Shown: in pieces, positions 8,934 through 62,025 of the stretch | Layout: each line of letters opens with the position of its first letter | How positions within the stretch are numbered: position 1 is the first letter of the stretch | Notes under the pieces: model-generated | The model's database searches: none | Told to the model about the DNA's origin: nothing | Seen by the model: the letters and a program-made list of their open reading frames with translations, nothing else | Assembly (NCBI GenBank): GCA_000004985.1 | Contig: GG738867.1 | DNA: 64,000 nucleotides | From: Naegleria gruberi | Taxonomy: Eukaryota | Reading direction: 5' to 3' (one strand) | Made by a program: the position numbers and the translations under genes

Positions 8934-11900
8934 ATGATTAGAACATCATCATCGCTGCCGAAAAATAGTAGTGGCAAGGCTTCTTCAACAAAATCAAATA
9001 CTGAGGAGCTTTGTGATTATTATAAAAGATCATTTTCTTTATTGTATGGAGTTTTGACTTCTCCTGTAGATAATTTTCCGTGGGTATGTGTGGATTAATC
9101 ATCATGATGATTTTTAATATGAATTGTTTACTATTAAATAGGCTCAAGTTTTGGAAAGTGTAAAGAATTCATTAAAGGATGTATGGAAAAGTTTTGAAAA
9201 TAGAAAACCTGAAGAAAAGGATATCAAACAAAAGGATATTGTTTCTGAATTGGTGAAGAGAACGGTATGTTTTGGAGATATCAAAATTTATTGATTATCA
9301 TTCTTGTAGAAATTAAACGAAGATAGCTGTTACAGATTGTTGGAAGATTATGTTGTTTGTGAAGCTCCTGATGCTCTCACATCAGACTCACAATCCATTC
9401 AAAAAGTATGTTCACATTCTTGATTATTATAATAATTATAATAATAACTTAATTAATAATATTAATGGATTATTATCTAAATATTTAGATTATTAATTTT
9501 TATTATTCGGAAAGAATTTTATTACTAGAGTGTATTTCAACAATTCTTAGGATTGATACTGAATATTCGGAAGACGATAATTGTGATGAAAGGACAAAAG
9601 TTTGCCACGATATTGCAACTTGGCTTTTCAATAATAACCTTGAACAAACTATGCACACCCTATTTTTTGATGCCTGTGATATTAACACACATTTGAAGAG
9701 TATTAATGAGTCATCATTAACCGAGACTGAAGCCACCAGAAGAAAGGTAGAGCTTACCGAACAAAAATTGAATGAACAAGCTTCTATACTAAATGTCTTG
9801 TTCATGCTCTATTATGGAAGACAATGCGATTTCAAAACATTTTTAAATTTAATTTCTCAACATTATCATGTAAGTATACTGAAACTTAAATATATTACTC
9901 ACACTTGTTCTAAAGGCAAACGATTTCGGAAATATTAATAGAAGTATTGGAAATGTTTCTATTAAAGGATTTCAAACAATAAGGAGAATAGTATGTTTGT
10001 CTGTACTGCTCTTTGTGGAAATTCTTGGATTTGAAAACGCTCTTGAAAAAACAAATCAAGGTGGAACATACTCTTCCTTCAAAGAAAGAGAAATTGCTAT
10101 GATAAATGACAACCTCAAGACACTTATTGATGAACCTCACACGGCAGCCATCAGAATATTTTGGGCAGCTTTCCTTCATCTTACCCAAAATAATGTTTCA
10201 CCACAAGTAATTTATGATCTGGCTCAAAAAGGTATTAAAGAAAATGGATTGGAATTTATTAGAAAAATGTTTGACAGAGATGATAATCCATTTGTGGTAA
10301 ATAATAATAATATTGAGGGTTATAGAACAGTGGTTTCAGGAGGAGTTTCATGCATCTACTTTTTATTTAGATTCCACAAAATTCCATATCAAATTTTGGA
10401 GCAAGTTTTTTCTGTAACTGAAATAGTTATACAACCAAAACCATACTGTATCGAGGATCAAAAATTATCCATGATTTTTAACGATCAAATGTTACAGAAG
10501 CCATATAGCGAGCTGTTGACATATTTCAAATTAGTATTTCCTGCTAGGAAAGAAATTCTTAGATTATTATCTTTAATGTGTTGTGATAATCAAAGTACAG
10601 TGAGCGTGAGATCTATTATGGAGTCACAAGACACATACTGTATTGAGATGACCCACACAGAGCTTAAGAGAATATGCGGACTGGACCAATCAAATTCAAA
10701 TGAATGGGAAACAAAACAAACACCTTTAGTTACGATAACATCAGTTAGAGACGAGACTACTAATGTAGTGATTCCACCAAATGTACAATGCATAGTTGTT
10801 AATCAAACTGCAGAAACCTGCCTTGTAACTTTCAACTTTTCAAGCTATATTTGGAAACTCATGTTTAGTCAAATTATTGAAGTGTTGCAAAATTCTGTTT
10901 CTATCAATAATCCACATGTTCGTTCGACAATGCACTATTTTTTGAATTTACTCTATAGAGTCATTAGTTTCAAAATGCTTAACATTGAAAAATTAGAAAA
11001 ATACTTGATTGAATTGCTTTTAAGTAAGCAAATTTATTCATCCAGAGACGAGAAGAGAGGAATTGTACAACTTCTTTCACACTTATTGAAGTATTTCTCT
11101 GATTTCCCACTTTCAAGCATTCCTATGGAAATAGTATTATCATGTTCTAAATGTTTGCATGCTCTTTCTGAAGTATCTCCTGTGGATACAGCATGCCAAG
11201 TTTCTCTTTTGATTCAAAAGTATCATTTTTCAAATATTTTGAGAGAAGAATGTATGATTGGTAGATATGGTGCAACCCTAAGCTTACTGGACACAGTGTT
11301 GTCATTGGCCAAAAATCATCCAGGACCAATGGATTCTGTCATAGAAATTCAACCTTTTATTTGCAGCAACATATTTTCTGTTCATGATTCATGGAGATAT
11401 CAAAAATTGGAAGAAAGATGGTTGATTGCTCTTAAGTGTCTTCAAATTTTCAACCAAATTGCTCAAGATTCATTGTGGGCTGAAAGAAAGTCTTCTCAAT
11501 CTCTTGTAGGATGTGGTGGTAGACCACTTTTGAATGCCTTCCTTCACGATGGTAGTTTGTATCAAGTTTTGTTCTCATTGATTGGCTTGGGTGGTACTTT
11601 TCTTGAGAATATCCTTCGTCATGAAAAGACAGATGAAGCAGCAACAGTTCAAAGTCTTATTGTTGAATCTCTCAAGTTGTTGGATTCAATCTTGAGATTC
11701 AGACAAATTGCCAAAGCAACAAATATTTCAACATTTGAGGATGTACTTTTCTCAAAGTTACTAGGAAAACAACAAGTGCCACTCATTACTTCTATTTTTG
11801 AATTTATTGATCATCCTAATGCGCCAGAAATTAGAATTTTAGCATGTAAGATTATTACCTTGATTGCTCAACTCACTGAAGACTACAATTCCAGACCTCC

Positions 11901-14823
11901 ATCCCTTGTTGGTTATTTGGGTAACCAATCTAGCTCTCTAGTTGGGCGTTGCTTGTACAGACTTCAGAGTGTTGGTGAAAGTGATGAATTGAAAATTGCA
12001 CTTCTTGATTTAATTTCAACAACAGTAGAAATTCAAAGAGGTTTGGCTGACTTGTTCTTGACCTCAACACCAGCAAAGATTAAAATCAAGAAGGAGAAGA
12101 ACGATGAAGAGCTCGCCCCTGGAGGTGTTCTTGTTACAATTTTAAAGATTATAGAAAATACTGAAAATTATATTGTAGAAAAGAGAACAAGTCTAGTAAG
12201 AAGTGCTTTGGCTGTCATTCAATCTATTTTCCAAAATGGAGAGAATAGATCCAAAATTACAAAGATTTTAAGAAATGACAGCTATTTCTGGAAATCAATG
12301 AAGAATATGTTTACCATCTTTACCAAAGATGAATCCACTAGTAAGAATATTGATATCCTTAGATCTATTACTTCAGTTATTGCTATTTGCTCTGTCGATA
12401 TGTACAATCTCAGAATATTGAAACAAGACCATAGTATGGAAACTGATATTGAAAAGACTCTCTTTGAAAAGGACTCTAAAACAATTCAAACTATACTCAA
12501 GACTTCAATTTCATTCATTATGAACAATATTAACTACTTGTCTGGTCTTATTCAAGATATTGATAGACTTTCAAAGAGAGATTCACAACAATTGGGAAGA
12601 GAAATTTTCTTCTCGGACTATCTCCTTGAAAGAAATACCAAGAAGGATGTTCTGTATGATACAGATAGAATTGTGAGATGGGAAACTGGTATTAGTGCCG
12701 AGTTACTCGACTCTCTATCATTGCTAAATCAAAAAATTGCCGTAGAGGAAGCATTTATTGCTCTGCTTAAATCCTTGCATGCCTTGTTTTCTGTGAGCTT
12801 GGAATCTCCTCTTCTCACAAGAGAGGAATCATCTGAAGAATACTTTTTGAATATTATTGATATTCTAGTTGTAGGACTCAAGATTTCAGAAGGTGATGCT
12901 ATGACCAAATATGTTTTCAACCCAACCAATGAATTCGGTCTCGATCTTGAAGTTTATGTTCCATTGCCAAAACTTTTGGATAACCTATTGAATACCTTCC
13001 ACATTGAAGTTGCTGCAATGCTAGCCAAGCTAATCCACAAATTCAACGCCAATTTCCCTCCAACAGATTTGATTGAAAAGCACAGCAGTTGGCTTTCTGA
13101 CCATTTATCAAAGTTGACACATTTATTACATACACAAGTTCAAAGAAAGAAGTCTAATGCAACAAAAGAAATTTTGGGTTGTCTCTTGATGTACTTTGTT
13201 GATTTGGATGAAGCTATTGGTGTCAGAACATGTTCCAAACTCACTCCAATACTTTTCCAAATCTTGAAGACATTTAACAGATACGAGCAATGCACAGAAT
13301 TGGCTATTTCGATTTTGGCTGTTTGTATCAAAGTTACTATCAATGAAGAATATGGAAACTATATTTGCAGAGAACTATGTGAATGTTTGACCACTTTTGA
13401 TGGAGTTGACGAACAACATTCTAAACACACCATTAACGTTCTCAATTTACTTTTGGCTTTCTCCACTACTCGAGCTGGAAGTTCAATGATGGTTGCCAAC
13501 AATATCTTACAAAAGTTTTCTGGTTGTACATTTTTAAGTTCTGGATGTGGAAAATATGCAGGTCAGACCTACTTTGAAGGAGAAAGAACTTACTGGCATA
13601 CTGCTTGGAGATATAGCTTGAAGATTATCACTACTCTCTTGAATTGTTACTATGTTGCAACTCAACCTAAGAGAAATATGGCCATGATGGATGAAGATAC
13701 AAACTATGGTCAATATCAATATTTTGTTCAACAAGTTCAAGATTTTTGTAATACTCACAGAAAGAGATTAGTTTTAGGTTTGGATGAATTATGGGATAAG
13801 AGACCTTTGACTTTTGCTCTTATTGAAGAAGTTGAACTCATTGGTATGCTAGTGAATGCACTTGCCAGATCTCACATTTTACCAAATTTACCTTACCTTG
13901 TCCAATCATCTCTTGTAGCAACAGCCAAGTGCGTGAATGCTGTTAAGCATTTTAGATTGATTTTGTCTGCTGTTACCCCAATCACACAACACGAAAGAAA
14001 ACTCCACGAAAAGGACAAACATTATATGGAAGAACTTCGTGCCTCCAGACCAACCTCAACAGGTACCAAGACTAGACGCCCTTTCAGAGAAAGAACAAAC
14101 TATGAAAACACCATTCCTTACAATTCTGAAGAGTCTCCATTTATTACCCATGCTACAGATGCTATCAAGAATCTTTATCAAGGAAGAGAGATGTTAAATT
14201 GGAATACTCAAATAGATTTGACAGTTTTTGGAACATTACAAAGCTTGGTTGCATCCATTCGTTGTTTGACCATTCTTCCTAGTGATGATGGAATTGAACA
14301 ACCTGTAGAGCCTGTTATTGTTCTTTCAATGCAATCCAATAGCCCTAATATTGAAACAATCTTCAAATGTGCTGAAGCTTGTGTTGATACCCTAAAGATT
14401 ATACCTTCGAGCAAATATAATACTGAACTAAGCAACAACAAGACAGGAAATGAGCTTGGCTCTTCAACTCCAACCGAGACACTCTCACCTTCATTCAGCG
14501 CAACTACTGAAAGAATGAGCAAAGAACAAGAGGCTATGATTAAGGCTAGACTTTTGGTGACACGTGTAGTGGTGGGTACTTTACAGGAATCTATCAATGT
14601 TATTGTTTCACACGTTTTGATTTATGAATTTATTGCCTATGGAGAGGAAAGTCAATCTGTTCGTGAAGTAAGAAATCACATGAAGGAACGTTTTGAATTT
14701 TTCCACAGAACTTGTGAGGGATTGTCGACGAAAAGTTGGTTCTTTATGAAGCATCCTGAACCTTTGCGAACAGTGCTCACACTTTTGAGAGATGTTATCG
14801 ACCTAGGTGGTTTAAAACAATAA
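8934..14823 (+). CDS. Large (about 1885 aa) alpha-solenoid protein of unknown identity (size and class of a Nup188/Nup205-type scaffold; not verified); 5 exons
   Basis: Exons 8934-9083, 9142-9264, 9310-9405, 9489-9869 and 9916-14823. Introns have GTATGT or GTAAGT donors and AG acceptors (lengths 58, 45, 83, 46 nt). All junctions keep the frame. The 9997 ORF starts at TTG and is open upstream to the intron, so it is the last exon. Confidence 0.7.
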
Positions 14824-28430: not shown

Positions 28431-28503
28431 GCCCGTCCAGCTCAGTCGGTAGAGCGCAAGGCTCTTAACCTTGTGGTCGTGGGTTCGACCCCCACGGTGG
28501 GCG
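28431..28503 (+). tRNA. tRNA-Lys (anticodon CTT)
   Basis: GCCCGTCCAGCTCAGTCGGTAGAGCGCAAGGCTCTTAACCTTGTGGTCGTGGGTTCGACCCCCACGGTGGGCG. The cloverleaf has a 7-bp acceptor stem. The anticodon loop CTCTTAA, the box A/B-like D and T arms, and near-identity to metazoan Lys-CTT support the call. A T-rich terminator follows. Confidence 0.9.
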
Positions 28504-34109: not shown

Positions 34110-37100
34110 ATGGCATCAAGTGATGTTCCAATTGAAAACAACCATATATCAACAACAACAACATGGGGAAGTGCTGCTACTAATACAATAACATCAACTC
34201 CAAGACTATTGCCGAAACCTCCAGTAACACCAAGAGGAAGTACAAAGGGAAGTTTGACACCATTAACAACGACAACAACAACCACCACTACTCCAAATAG
34301 TACTATTGCTAATGTTGTTAATGTAGGGAAACAACCTCCTCCAATTACAAATATTATTAGAAATCGAATAGAATTGGAGGAAAGAGAAAAGGAAAATCAA
34401 CAAAATATTCATTTATCATCACCGTTAACATCACCATCATCAATGCATAATAGTAATACTAATAGCTATTCGAATGAATATGAAAATTCCTCATACCTTT
34501 TCCAAGATGAAGTTGAAGAATATAAAACACCACCCAAACAATCGAGCACATCAACTCCCACAACAGAATCTTCATCTGCACTTCCTCCTCCTCCACCTTC
34601 TCTTCCATCATCAATGTCTAAATTGGCTTTAAAGAATGGAAAGATCAATAATAATTATCAGAAAGTAGTGACGACCACCATGATGAGTCCTCCACCTCCT
34701 CCACCAATAACAGTGGTGAGGAATGCACCTATTGCTACAATAGCTAGTACTGCATCACCAACAGTTTCGAATAGTAGTAATACTACACAACCAGAATCAC
34801 CTCGATTGGAAAGATACAAACCACTTCCTTCTGTTGCTAAATATAAGAGAGATTCAGTGGTAATTGCTAATTTGGCCAGTTTACCACCTCCTCAAATAAG
34901 TGATATGAAAGCATTCCTTGATATTTATGACAATAAGATACTAATTGTTGATTCGAGAGCATTTAGTGGCAGTAAAACTGTTAGTGAGCAATTAATATCA
35001 AGATTCACATTACGTACATTGACCATTGACAGCATTTTAGGAAGGGGCTGTTCGGGATGTGTCTATTTATGTAGTGAGAATGGAGAAAAGTTGGCTGTAA
35101 AGATTGTCACTCCAACTGCTACTTTTGCACCTAATGTAAAAGCAGAGTATGAACTAATGAGGTCATTGAATCATGATAGTATCATGAAAGTCCATGATTA
35201 TTTTGAAATGTTAACCTCACTTCAACCTGGATCTTTATTTACAATGAAATATTATGAAAATGGAGATTTGAGAAGATTAATTGAGGATTTTGAAAAGAAG
35301 GAAAAGAAAATCTCTATTCATGTATGTATTTTTTATAATTTTTAATGTAATGTGGATTTACCTTTGAATGAAAATTGAAACAAACAGTTGATTTATGATT
35401 TCATTTATCAAATGGCTAGCTCTTTAAATTTTATTCACACTCAAAAAATAATTCACCGAGATTTGGTATGTTTTAAAATTAATCAATTTCATAACCATTT
35501 CATCAATAGAAAGTAAGTTTCCTCTTTTGTTCCTCTTACTAAATTTGATTAATAGCCTGAAAATATTTTTATGGAAAAACAAACAGATCACACTTGTAAA
35601 ATAGTATTGGGAGATTTTGGATTGGCTAAAACTATACAACAATCACATGGACTCTATTCGATTGTTGGAACAATGAATTACCTTTCTCCTGAAATTGTAA
35701 ATAATTCTGAATACGGAGCAGAAACTGATATATGGAGTTTTGGTGTTGTCTGTTACGAGTTAATGACCTTAAAGAGTAAGCAAGTTGAAAGAGTGGTTAC
35801 ACTCCGCCAACAAGGAGCTCTCGTCAATGACATGCTCAACAGATATCCTCAAGAGGTTACCATGATCGAGTTGATTGTTCAAATGTTGAACAAGAATCCC
35901 TCTGATAGACCATCAGCGGATGAAATTCTCAAACAACCATGCATGAAACACTTTATTGAAATGAAGAAAGTGTGTGAACATATTGTACAGAAGCTTACTG
36001 AAAGTTTGGCTTATTTCCAGAAAAATTACGAGTTTGAAAAATGTGTACAGATCAAAGATCTTCTACAGAGTATTAGTCAACTGAGAGCAGAGTCCTGTGA
36101 TTCGAGTAGACTCAGGATATCACTCTTCAATGCATATACATTCTTGGAAGAAAAATTACCTGAAAATATTGACCTAAAACCAACTAAACCAAAGGTCAAT
36201 TTGGCTTCCTCTCCAGAAAAGCAAATAACTACCAAGAGAAGATCTAATACCAAAGCTGGTGTAACAAGTCCATCTAATCAAAATCCTCCATCATCCAATA
36301 CAACAATAACTACCACCACCAATAATCAACCTAACTTTAGAGTAACCATCTCAGGAGATGAGGAATTTTCACATCATTCTGAGGAATCTGAAAATTCCTC
36401 TGGTTCCACCGATAGTTCAACTGCTGTCAAGAAAAACTCCAATGCAAATAGTTTAGAGCTCGAAGATCCAAATATTATTAGAAAGAGGTCATCCTCTCGT
36501 AATACTATTATAAATCAAATCAAGGGATGGGTTGGTTATGGAACAGAAAAGGAGAAAAGCTTTAGACAAACTGTGGTAATTAAGCCACCAGATCCAAACA
36601 AGTTCCAACACAGCCATCACATTGGAGTGGACGATAGAAATAGAGTGAGTGGAAATTATCCAAAAGATTTTGATTCAGTCTTACAAGACATGCATATGGA
36701 ACCAGTAGAAAGCCCAATTGTTGAAACTCCCACTCCTGTCATTAAAGAAGGAGAAGAGGAAGAAGAAATTAAACCAAGACTACACAGAAGATCAACAAGT
36801 CTATTCGAAAAGCCATCCCTCAATCAATCTCTAGATGAGATTACAACAGTCGCGAGTCCAACCAAACAACGTAGCTCGACTGTGAAAAGTAGTAATAGCC
36901 CTGTACCACCAGTGGAGATTTTAAAAGATCCTCCAAACTCACCACCAAGTACAACAACTCCTTCGACACCCTCTAACTCTGAAATACTCAAAATTTCTCC
37001 ACGATTTGGAAAGGCTGGAAAGTTAGAAGTCAGTCCAACTCCATTCGAAATTACTGGTACTCCTGTAAAATCTCCAAACACACAAAATGGTGTGGAAATT

Positions 37101-37214
37101 CCAAGTATTGGAGGTGCATTCAAACTCATCTCTGACCGAAGACAACAAGATATCATTGAAAAGAATATTGAAGAAGCTTGTAGCTCACCAACAGTTTCAA
37201 GAAGACGAAGGTAA
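34110..37214 (+). CDS. NEK-like Ser/Thr protein kinase with a long Ser/Thr/Pro-rich C-terminal tail; 3 exons plus a putative 3-nt micro-exon
   Basis: Exons 34110-35321, 35388-35465, [35510-35512], 35556-37214. Motifs GRGCSGCVYLC, LAVKIV, HRDL(K)PENIF, DFGLAKT, GTMNYLSPE and DIWSFGVVCYELMT. Introns carry GTATGT or GTAAGT donors. The first ORF's listed start is upstream of the ATG, and the true start MASSDVP is at 34110. Confidence 0.7.
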
Positions 37215-43744: not shown

Positions 43745-43817
43745 TCCCCCTTAGCTCAGTCGGTAGAGCGTCAGACTGTTAATCTGCAGGTCGGTGGTTC
43801 GAGCCCACCAGGGGGAG
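43745..43817 (+). tRNA. tRNA-Asn (anticodon GTT)
   Basis: TCCCCCTTAGCTCAGTCGGTAGAGCGTCAGACTGTTAATCTGCAGGTCGGTGGTTCGAGCCCACCAGGGGGAG. There is perfect 7-bp acceptor pairing. The anticodon loop is CTGTTAA, the T-loop is GGTTCGAGCC, and a T-run follows downstream. Confidence 0.85.
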
Positions 43818-52825: not shown

Positions 52826-52906
52826 GCAGACTTGGCCGAGAGGTTAAGGCGCGAGACTCGAAATCTCGTGGGGAAACCTTCGTAGGTTCGAATCCTGCAG
52901 TCTGCG
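52826..52906 (+). tRNA. tRNA-Ser (anticodon CGA)
   Basis: GCAGACTTGGCCGAGAGGTTAAGGCGCGAGACTCGAAATCTCGTGGGGAAACCTTCGTAGGTTCGAATCCTGCAGTCTGCG. It has a long variable arm typical of Ser. The anticodon loop is CTCGAAA and a T-run follows. Confidence 0.9.
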
Positions 52907-61251: not shown

Positions 61252-61879
61252 ATGAGCTTAAAGTCATCACAGCATCATAACGGATCATCAGCAACATCAT
61301 CTTCTAATAATCAATCATCACAACAACAACGATTATATGTCCGATATGTAGGTTTATAGTCGTTATATTAAATTATTATAATTTAGAAAAAATTAATTTA
61401 ATATTATTTTGATTAGTATGTTGGACATAAGGGAAAATATGGTCATGAATTTTTGGAAATTACTTTTCATCCCGATGGTTTATTAGAATATAAAAATAAT
61501 ACAGATTATAAAGGAGAGGGAGAAATATTGAAAACTGTAAATTTAAATAATATTGTGTTGGAGCAATTAAAGACAATAATTTTGGAATCACGTATTATGG
61601 AGTAAGTTTTGGATGTTAAATTTGGATATTAATCTGATGAATAGAGAAAGTGATCGAAAGTGGCCACTACCAGACAATATTGGAAAATCAGAATTGGAAA
61701 TTGTATTAGATAAGGAACACATTTCATTTGCCACCACTAAAATTCAAACTCTTTCCGAAGTTACCAAATCACATGATCCAGAAGGATTGAAGAACTTTTA
61801 TTATTTAACAGCTGATTTGAAAGATTTTGCACTCAACCTCATCAATATGCATCATAAACTCAAACCAATTCTGTACTAG
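61252..61879 (+). CDS. MAGOH: Mago nashi (exon junction complex core subunit), 3 exons (61252-61347, 61417-61601, 61645-61879)
   Basis: Spliced product …[38 protein letters not shown]…ILESRIMEESDRKWPLPDNIGKSELEIVLDKEHISFATTKIQTLSEVTKSHDPEGLKNFYYLTADLKDFALNLINMHHKLKPILY aligns along its length with Mago nashi. Introns are 61348-61416 (donor GTAGGT) and 61602-61644 (donor GTAAGT). Confidence 0.9.
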
Positions 61880-61944: not shown

Positions 61945-62025
61945 GCAGACTTGGCCGAGTGGTTAAGGCGACAGACTTGAAATCTGTTGGGGAAACCTTC
62001 GTAGGTTCGAATCCTGCAGTCTGCG
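61945..62025 (+). tRNA. tRNA-Ser (anticodon TGA)
   Basis: GCAGACTTGGCCGAGTGGTTAAGGCGACAGACTTGAAATCTGTTGGGGAAACCTTCGTAGGTTCGAATCCTGCAGTCTGCG. It is a paralogue of the Ser-CGA gene at 52826 and shares the same 3' flank TCTGAAATTTTG. Confidence 0.9.

Follow-up and report, generated by a model that had tools for sequence, protein, structure and literature searches.

The codon for a catalytic-loop lysine very probably makes up an entire exon in a protein kinase gene of the heterolobosean protist Naegleria gruberi. The window analysed here is a 64,000-nt stretch of contig GG738867.1 (assembly GCA_000004985.1), and in it a 90-nt block separates the exon that ends in HRDL from that which begins with PENIF. 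The block is best read as two introns, of 44 and 43 nt (A and B in what follows), flanking the 3-nt exon AAA, whose inclusion in the mRNA would give HRDLKPENIF and is strongly suggested by the sequence. Such a micro-exon had been proposed in a preliminary description of this DNA. The proposal is well supported by the lysine of the orthologues, the contiguity of the corresponding codons in orthologous DNA, the splice sites on both sides of AAA, the gain in Pfam score and the lack of any equivalent deletion among the 120 best homologues.

The kinase gene and its 90-nt block

Direct reading of the window bears out the layout of HRDL, AAA and PENIF that had been described, and translation confirms that removing the block in one piece would give HRDL-PENIF, in frame and without the lysine (Table 1). 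GTATGT (35466-35471) and CAATAG (35504-35509) bound intron A, with GTAAGT (35513-35518) and TAATAG (35550-35555) bounding intron B, and AAA has a YAG directly 5' and a GTRNGT directly 3' of it (CAATAG-AAA-GTAAGT, 35504-35518). Exon 1, as translated, contributes the Gly-rich loop GRGCSG, the VAIK-type lysine (here LAVK) and the helix-C glutamate, and the last exon finishes with SPTVSRRRR ahead of a stop codon at 37212-37214. With AAA included the kinase would have 983 aa. The G+C content of the window, ~33%, equals that published for N. gruberi NEG-M (PMC8296547).

Table 1. Kinase gene, its alternative junctions and further features of the window (positions are those of the window)
Feature	Positions	Strand	Remarks
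Kinase exon 1	34110..35321	+	first ATG of open frame to …KKISIH; from translations and orthologue alignment
Intron 1	35322..35387	+	66 nt, phase 0, GTATGT…AACAG; position conserved; in-frame stop inside
Exon 2	35388..35465	+	78 nt, LIYDFIYQMASSLNFIHTQKIIHRDL; ends ATT CAC CGA GAT TTG (…IHRDL)
Intron A	35466..35509	+	44 nt, GTATGT…CAATAG; donor GTATGTTT; 80% A+T
Proposed micro-exon	35510..35512	+	3 nt, AAA; would encode catalytic-loop Lys of HRDLKPEN
Intron B	35513..35555	+	43 nt, GTAAGT…TAATAG; donor GTAAGTTT; 72% A+T; pyrimidine-rich stretch
Last exon	35556..37214	+	starts CCT GAA AAT ATT TTT (PENIF); …DFG…SPE…DRPSA, long C-terminal tail
Predicted mature junction, AAA included			GATTTGAAACCTGAA; k-mer CACCGAGATTTGAAACCTGAAAATATT
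Mature junction if AAA were skipped			…GATTTG CCTGAA…; k-mer CACCGAGATTTGCCTGAAAATATT
Expected splicing intermediate, A removed and B retained			TTGAAAGTAAGT
Expected splicing intermediate, B removed and A retained			CAATAGAAACCTGAA
Large gene, putative intron	9084-9141	+	58 nt; reading-frame continuity only
Large gene, putative intron	9265-9309	+	45 nt; reading-frame continuity only
Large gene, putative intron	9406-9488	+	83 nt; reading-frame continuity only
Large gene, putative intron	9870-9915	+	46 nt; reading-frame continuity only
tRNA gene Lys-CTT	28431-28503	+	
tRNA gene Asn-GTT	43745-43817	+	
tRNA gene Ser-CGA	52826-52906	+	
tRNA gene Ser-TGA	61945-62025	+	

The catalytic loop with and without its lysine

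Against the Pkinase profile (PF00069, cut-off 31.7 bits) the product scores 185.7 bits with the lysine and 173.4 bits without it, a drop of 12.3 bits. The pattern D[LIVM]K..N is present in 114 of the 120 best homologues, the remainder having tyrosine-kinase-type or HLD-type loops, and a loop shortened by that one residue, HRD[LIVM]P[EAS]N, occurs in none of the 120. The catalytic-loop lysine of protein kinases touches the gamma-phosphate, and its deletion would also shift the asparagine relative to the catalytic aspartate. All other catalytic motifs are intact: besides the Gly-rich loop and LAVK these are the helix-C Glu (AEYE), HRD, the Asn of PEN, DFG, SPE, DIWSFG and DRPSA. Inclusion of the micro-exon would accordingly complete a predicted product that matches PF00069 and carries every catalytic residue of an active kinase; AAA leaves the frame undisturbed and brings back residues that homologues conserve.

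Reading through intron A meets a stop after 16 codons and reading through intron B a stop after 9. Retention of A, B or both was considered, as were nearby alternative AG and GT sites, and all of these lead to stops or frameshifts, so that a normal kinase can be made only by way of the 3-nt exon. One part of the preliminary description did not hold up, namely its label 'NEK-like', for which specific support is lacking: the solved chains that come closest to it are those of CDPK (3.9e-29), PLK2 (1.1e-28) and NEK1 (4.5e-27), then PLK4, NEK7 and Aurora A, all at similar E-values (range 1e-29 to 1e-25), and the database matches that come next after the orthologues are of the RSK, CDPK, PLK and MLCK types.

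Orthologues with an uninterrupted codon

Orthologues of the kinase are available from N. lovaniensis, N. fowleri, a metagenome contig in ENA and Willaertia magna, the best database match being the N. lovaniensis hypothetical kinase at 52% identity, with generic kinases ranking far lower. All four have HRD[LI]KPENIF, with the lysine at exactly the position of the micro-exon, and the HRDLKPENIF predicted for the window is identical to the sequence in N. lovaniensis, N. fowleri and the ENA contig. When the lysine is included, the alignment with the orthologues is free of gaps from ISIH to DFG.

The DNA was read at three of these loci. N. lovaniensis has CAC AGA GAT TTG AAA CCT GAA, N. fowleri CAT CGA GAT TTG AAA CCT GAA and the ENA contig GAT TTG AAG CCT GAG, in each case uninterrupted, and introns A and B are thus missing from all three. 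Since the orthologues are contiguous at TTG-AAA/AAG-CCT, what sets the window apart is a pair of insertions placed exactly on either side of the lysine codon. Aligned with two gaps, the window matches the orthologous loci at 17-18 of the 20 positions before CCT. MAFFT places a single 90-nt gap instead, setting the tail of intron B on the orthologue exon with only 10 of 20 identities; this placement was rejected as an artefact of gap cost. The same 10/20 resemblance does not count as evidence for an origin by exon duplication. Once spliced, the window sequence is identical to the orthologues at 61-70 of 87 positions, and at the C-terminus it stays colinear with them to the last residues (…ACSSPTVSRRRR in the window vs …ACNSPTVSRRKR).

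Intron 1 lies at the same phase-0 site, after ISIH, as the sole annotated intron of the gene in N. lovaniensis (69 nt; 2719-2787 of locus L001) and N. fowleri (65 nt; 2728-2792 of locus L002). That its position is common to the three Naegleria confirms orthology, and makes mini-introns A and B lineage-specific among the available genomes. In the ENA contig intron 1 is missing too, the gene there being one uninterrupted ORF. Pairwise identities set this contig apart from the three Naegleria sequences, and Willaertia still further away. A gain of introns A and B in the lineage of the window has a slight edge in parsimony over two losses, and a joint loss of both, 3'-biased and mediated by reverse transcriptase, would fit too.

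Exact look-up of the form with the lysine, the form without it and the Mago nashi protein encoded further along the window gave no match in the protein collection, where the best identities to the window products (the 52% given above for the kinase, 75% for Mago) are with other Naegleria species. In metagenome contigs no spliced junction with 0-3 intervening bases was found, and family-specific peptides matched no relatives there.

Are introns of 43 and 44 nt credible?

Introns in this window range from 43 to 83 nt, and A and B stand at the very bottom of that range. An independent case is provided by the Mago nashi gene (61252-61879, + strand; 171 aa, PF02792 at 191 bits), which has one intron of 69 nt (61348-61416, donor GTAGGT) and another of 43 nt (61602-61644, GTAAGTTT…GAATAG). 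With the 43-nt intron taken out the product is exactly colinear with PF02792, residues 1-137 corresponding to profile positions 6-142, and in N. fowleri the annotated Mago nashi gene is interrupted at these two positions too, in the same phases, by introns of 114 and 74 nt. Introns of 43 nt are real in this genome, and that of Mago nashi is validated.

Intron B has the very donor of the 43-nt Mago nashi intron, both ending in AATAG, and intron A shares its donor with the putative intron at 9265. Elsewhere in the window, where reading-frame continuity points to further introns of 45, 46, 53, 53, 58 and 83 nt, these two donors and the acceptor AATAG are the forms that introns use most often. A branch-like TACTAAA, close to the yeast TACTAAC, stands 13 nt upstream of the acceptor of intron B and a branch-like CATAAC ~15 nt upstream of the AG of intron A, both picked by eye against a general consensus that may not be that of Naegleria. 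Each of the two introns thereby has a donor, a candidate branch site (as judged by eye), an acceptor and a locally validated length. A scan of the window for other micro-exons (AG-N(1-15)-GTRNGT joining open frames) returned only ambiguous matches inside long open frames.

How often would AG-AAA-GT arise by chance?

The motif AGAARGTAWGT occurs a single time in the window, at the site of the micro-exon. Dinucleotide-preserving shuffles give an expectation of 0.18 per 128 kb, both strands counted, which, over the ~79 positions inside a single 90-nt intron, amounts to ~1e-4. With a first-order Markov model whose training set was the interiors of nine further introns from the window, the chance is 2.5e-6 for any interior position and 6e-7 if both sub-introns are to be at least 35 nt. 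The looser motif YAGNNNGTAWGT has no window-wide enrichment (1 found vs 1.08 expected), and with that motif at chance level the signal comes from a particular site in its context, not from general abundance of the motif.

Counted on both strands of the window, the donor-like hexamer GTAWGT is under-represented (32 vs 45.9 expected, sd 7.1). Its count was at least 32 in 98 of 100 shuffles, a marginal shortage in a single window, such as selection against cryptic 5' splice sites could produce.

A probable route to the mature message

Introns A and B would be minimal U2-type GT-AG introns, the removal of both producing TTG-AAA-CCT and with it HRDLKPENIF, a catalytic loop of the kind normal in active Ser/Thr kinases. 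Each is short and would probably be recognised across its own length (intron definition). Only three bases lie between the acceptor of A and the donor of B, and since the factors bound to them would overlap, sequential removal is most likely, rather than removal of both together. Were A to go first it would leave TTGAAA-GTAAGT, and were B to go first CAATAG-AAACCT, an ordinary splice site either way. The introns that flank plant micro-exons are removed consecutively (PMC8831610). We infer that use of AAA would be constitutive rather than regulated. If the donor of A were paired with the acceptor of B, the exon would be skipped without loss of frame, an event invisible to nonsense-mediated decay, and this may explain why all four splice sites are at full consensus strength. 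Some skipping of AAA, with production of an isoform devoid of the lysine, is mechanically possible.

A 9-nt inverted repeat (35478-35486 / 35545-35553, ATTAATCAA / TTGATTAAT) joins introns A and B; its pairing would loop out the micro-exon, and such matches are to be expected by chance in A+T-rich DNA. Several other characters that the block might have had were considered and rejected. A structured RNA is not indicated by the predicted fold of 35456-35565 (-11.9 kcal/mol, z-score -0.22). Intron B is not to be taken for a duplicate of A, the alignment score of their interiors being reached by 18% of shuffles. For copies of an 'introner' one would look to a second occurrence of the 90 nt, and the one window examined has none. 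Opposite the kinase coding sequence the only candidate for an antisense gene is a 72-aa ORF with a TTG start, which is not taken for a gene.

Competing readings of the block

The simplest gene model, and the output expected of most gene finders, is a single 90-nt intron (35466-35555) within which AG-AAA-GTAAGT is coincidental, the product, which would read HRDL-PENIF, being either a pseudokinase or a kinase whose loop is altered. The junction would be in frame and 90 nt may be taken as within the local range, given the 83-nt intron at 9406. However, this reading has to accommodate a lysine kept in all orthologues and worth 12.3 bits to the Pfam match, a deletion that none of the 120 best homologues shares, the retention of every other catalytic residue, and a motif whose chance occurrence is put at only 1e-4 to 3e-6 and which sits, of all places, at the ancestral codon position. 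We regard it as very unlikely. Further out, and close to negligible, is a decaying pseudogene or assembly artefact in which the 90 nt are junk that has landed in the catalytic loop. The block is indeed missing from all three relatives with readable DNA, but the frames on either side of it are intact (404 and 552 codons) and conserved to the last residues, the position of intron 1 is conserved, canonical splice signals mark all four boundaries around intron-like sequence of 72-80% A+T, and no repeat copies of the block lie elsewhere in the window.

A reading that shares the two introns with that preferred here makes AAA a regulated cassette, both isoforms being produced, with inclusion giving an active kinase and skipping an in-frame but impaired one, so that splicing would act as an on/off switch, e.g. 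between amoeba, flagellate and cyst stages. Skipping would preserve the frame and go unnoticed by nonsense-mediated decay, animal 3-nt exons are often alternative (Drosophila troponin T, cytohesin-1, MAP4K5; PMC6314551), and exon skipping has been detected in transcriptomes of N. gruberi, which is among the non-animal species studied (PMC6142364). In the same study, though, intron retention outnumbered skipping in every species except one, and all four splice sites are of the strongest local types, which favours efficient constitutive use, while relatives encode the lysine constitutively without any intron. Regulated use of this exon is on balance quite unlikely, and the wider proposal of a splicing switch across the life stages of Naegleria, whose skipped form would be a catalytically impaired scaffold made in stage-dependent proportion, and to which a recent double intron gain in an N. 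gruberi-like lineage is related, is unlikely as well, if a shade less so. A constitutive micro-exon between two minimal introns is what the evidence argues for.

Relation to known micro-exons

Exons of 3 nt in animals and of 1 nt in plants are already known, and the Naegleria case adds another, notable for the catalytic residue encoded, the minimal introns on both sides and the protist host. In the literature searched no report of micro-exons in Naegleria was found. If confirmed at the RNA level, it would to our knowledge rank with the shortest exons on record for organisms other than animals and plants.

The 3-nt exon of Drosophila troponin T is a parallel in what it encodes: it too specifies one lysine, which is lost on skipping (Benoist et al. 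1998, as related in PMC8042270). It is alternative and tissue-specific, has longer flanking introns, and its lysine is non-catalytic, whereas the Naegleria exon is probably constitutive, belongs to a heterolobosean protist, has flanking introns of 44 and 43 nt and would supply the lysine of a catalytic loop. Mouse Ncam likewise has a single-codon exon, missed or misplaced by standard mapping and annotation (Santoni 1989, as related in PMC8042270), and single-codon exons of cytohesin-1 (PMC6314551) and MAP4K5 (PMC8632122) have been missed or misplaced too. Of these, MAP4K5 likewise encodes a protein kinase, but its codon is the single-codon variant V569E/del at residue 569 and not the catalytic-loop lysine (PMC8632122). 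These vertebrate exons are embedded in long introns, recognised as exon units, alternatively spliced and supported by RNA; the Naegleria micro-exon is predicted from DNA sequence.

Plant micro-exons (1-15 nt, those of 1 nt being in APC11 and VPS55) are similar in behaviour: they are constitutive, contribute essential coding and are pervasively unannotated, and they have strong donors (GTRAGT) in addition to the consecutive intron removal mentioned above (PMC8831610). Some plant relatives are intronless, the bases of the micro-exon being subsumed in one exon (PMC8831610), and likewise in N. fowleri and N. lovaniensis the lysine codon is part of a continuous exon. Plant micro-exons are, however, conserved in many species and backed by RNA-seq and RT-PCR (PMC8831610), while the Naegleria exon comes so far from one genome.

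The Naegleria arrangement also has a certain likeness to recursive splicing in that a 3' splice site almost abuts a 5' splice site, and that removal of the upstream piece would set a functional 5' splice site against the upstream exon, the remainder being removed in a further step. Recursive splice sites (AG-GTAAGT), found in Drosophila and vertebrates, are zero-length exons that subdivide very long introns. Such sites leave no bases in the mRNA, whereas the Naegleria site would keep three coding bases between minimal introns. A recursive splice site proper was rejected here, the AG and GT being separated by an AAA that the conserved protein needs.

Implications for annotation and for splicing

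A gene model devoid of AAA would have a one-residue deletion in the catalytic loop, wrongly hinting at a pseudokinase, and the present reading is in the first place a correction of annotation, as well as a warning that single-codon exons can hide in intron-poor protist genomes. If confirmed by RNA, the locus would offer a natural test of intron definition, in which only three bases part the splice sites of two minimal introns, and could serve for the study of removal order, steric exclusion and fidelity against in-frame skipping. With introns A and B missing in relatives that share intron 1, it is usable for the study of intron gain and loss. A double gain at adjacent codon boundaries, if true, would be a rare snapshot of the birth of a micro-exon in an intron-poor protist.

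Gene neighbourhood

A large gene (~8934-14823, + strand, ~1885 aa from the first Met) appears to have four short introns near its 5' end, and no Pfam match was found for the N-terminal 626 aa of its product. In N. fowleri the orthologues of the kinase and of Mago nashi are both on contig VFQX01000017.1, at 203-209 kb and 270-272 kb respectively, so that their linkage is kept with a spacing of ~63 kb there vs ~25 kb in the window. Some 65 nt separate the Mago nashi stop codon from the Ser-TGA tRNA gene downstream of it.
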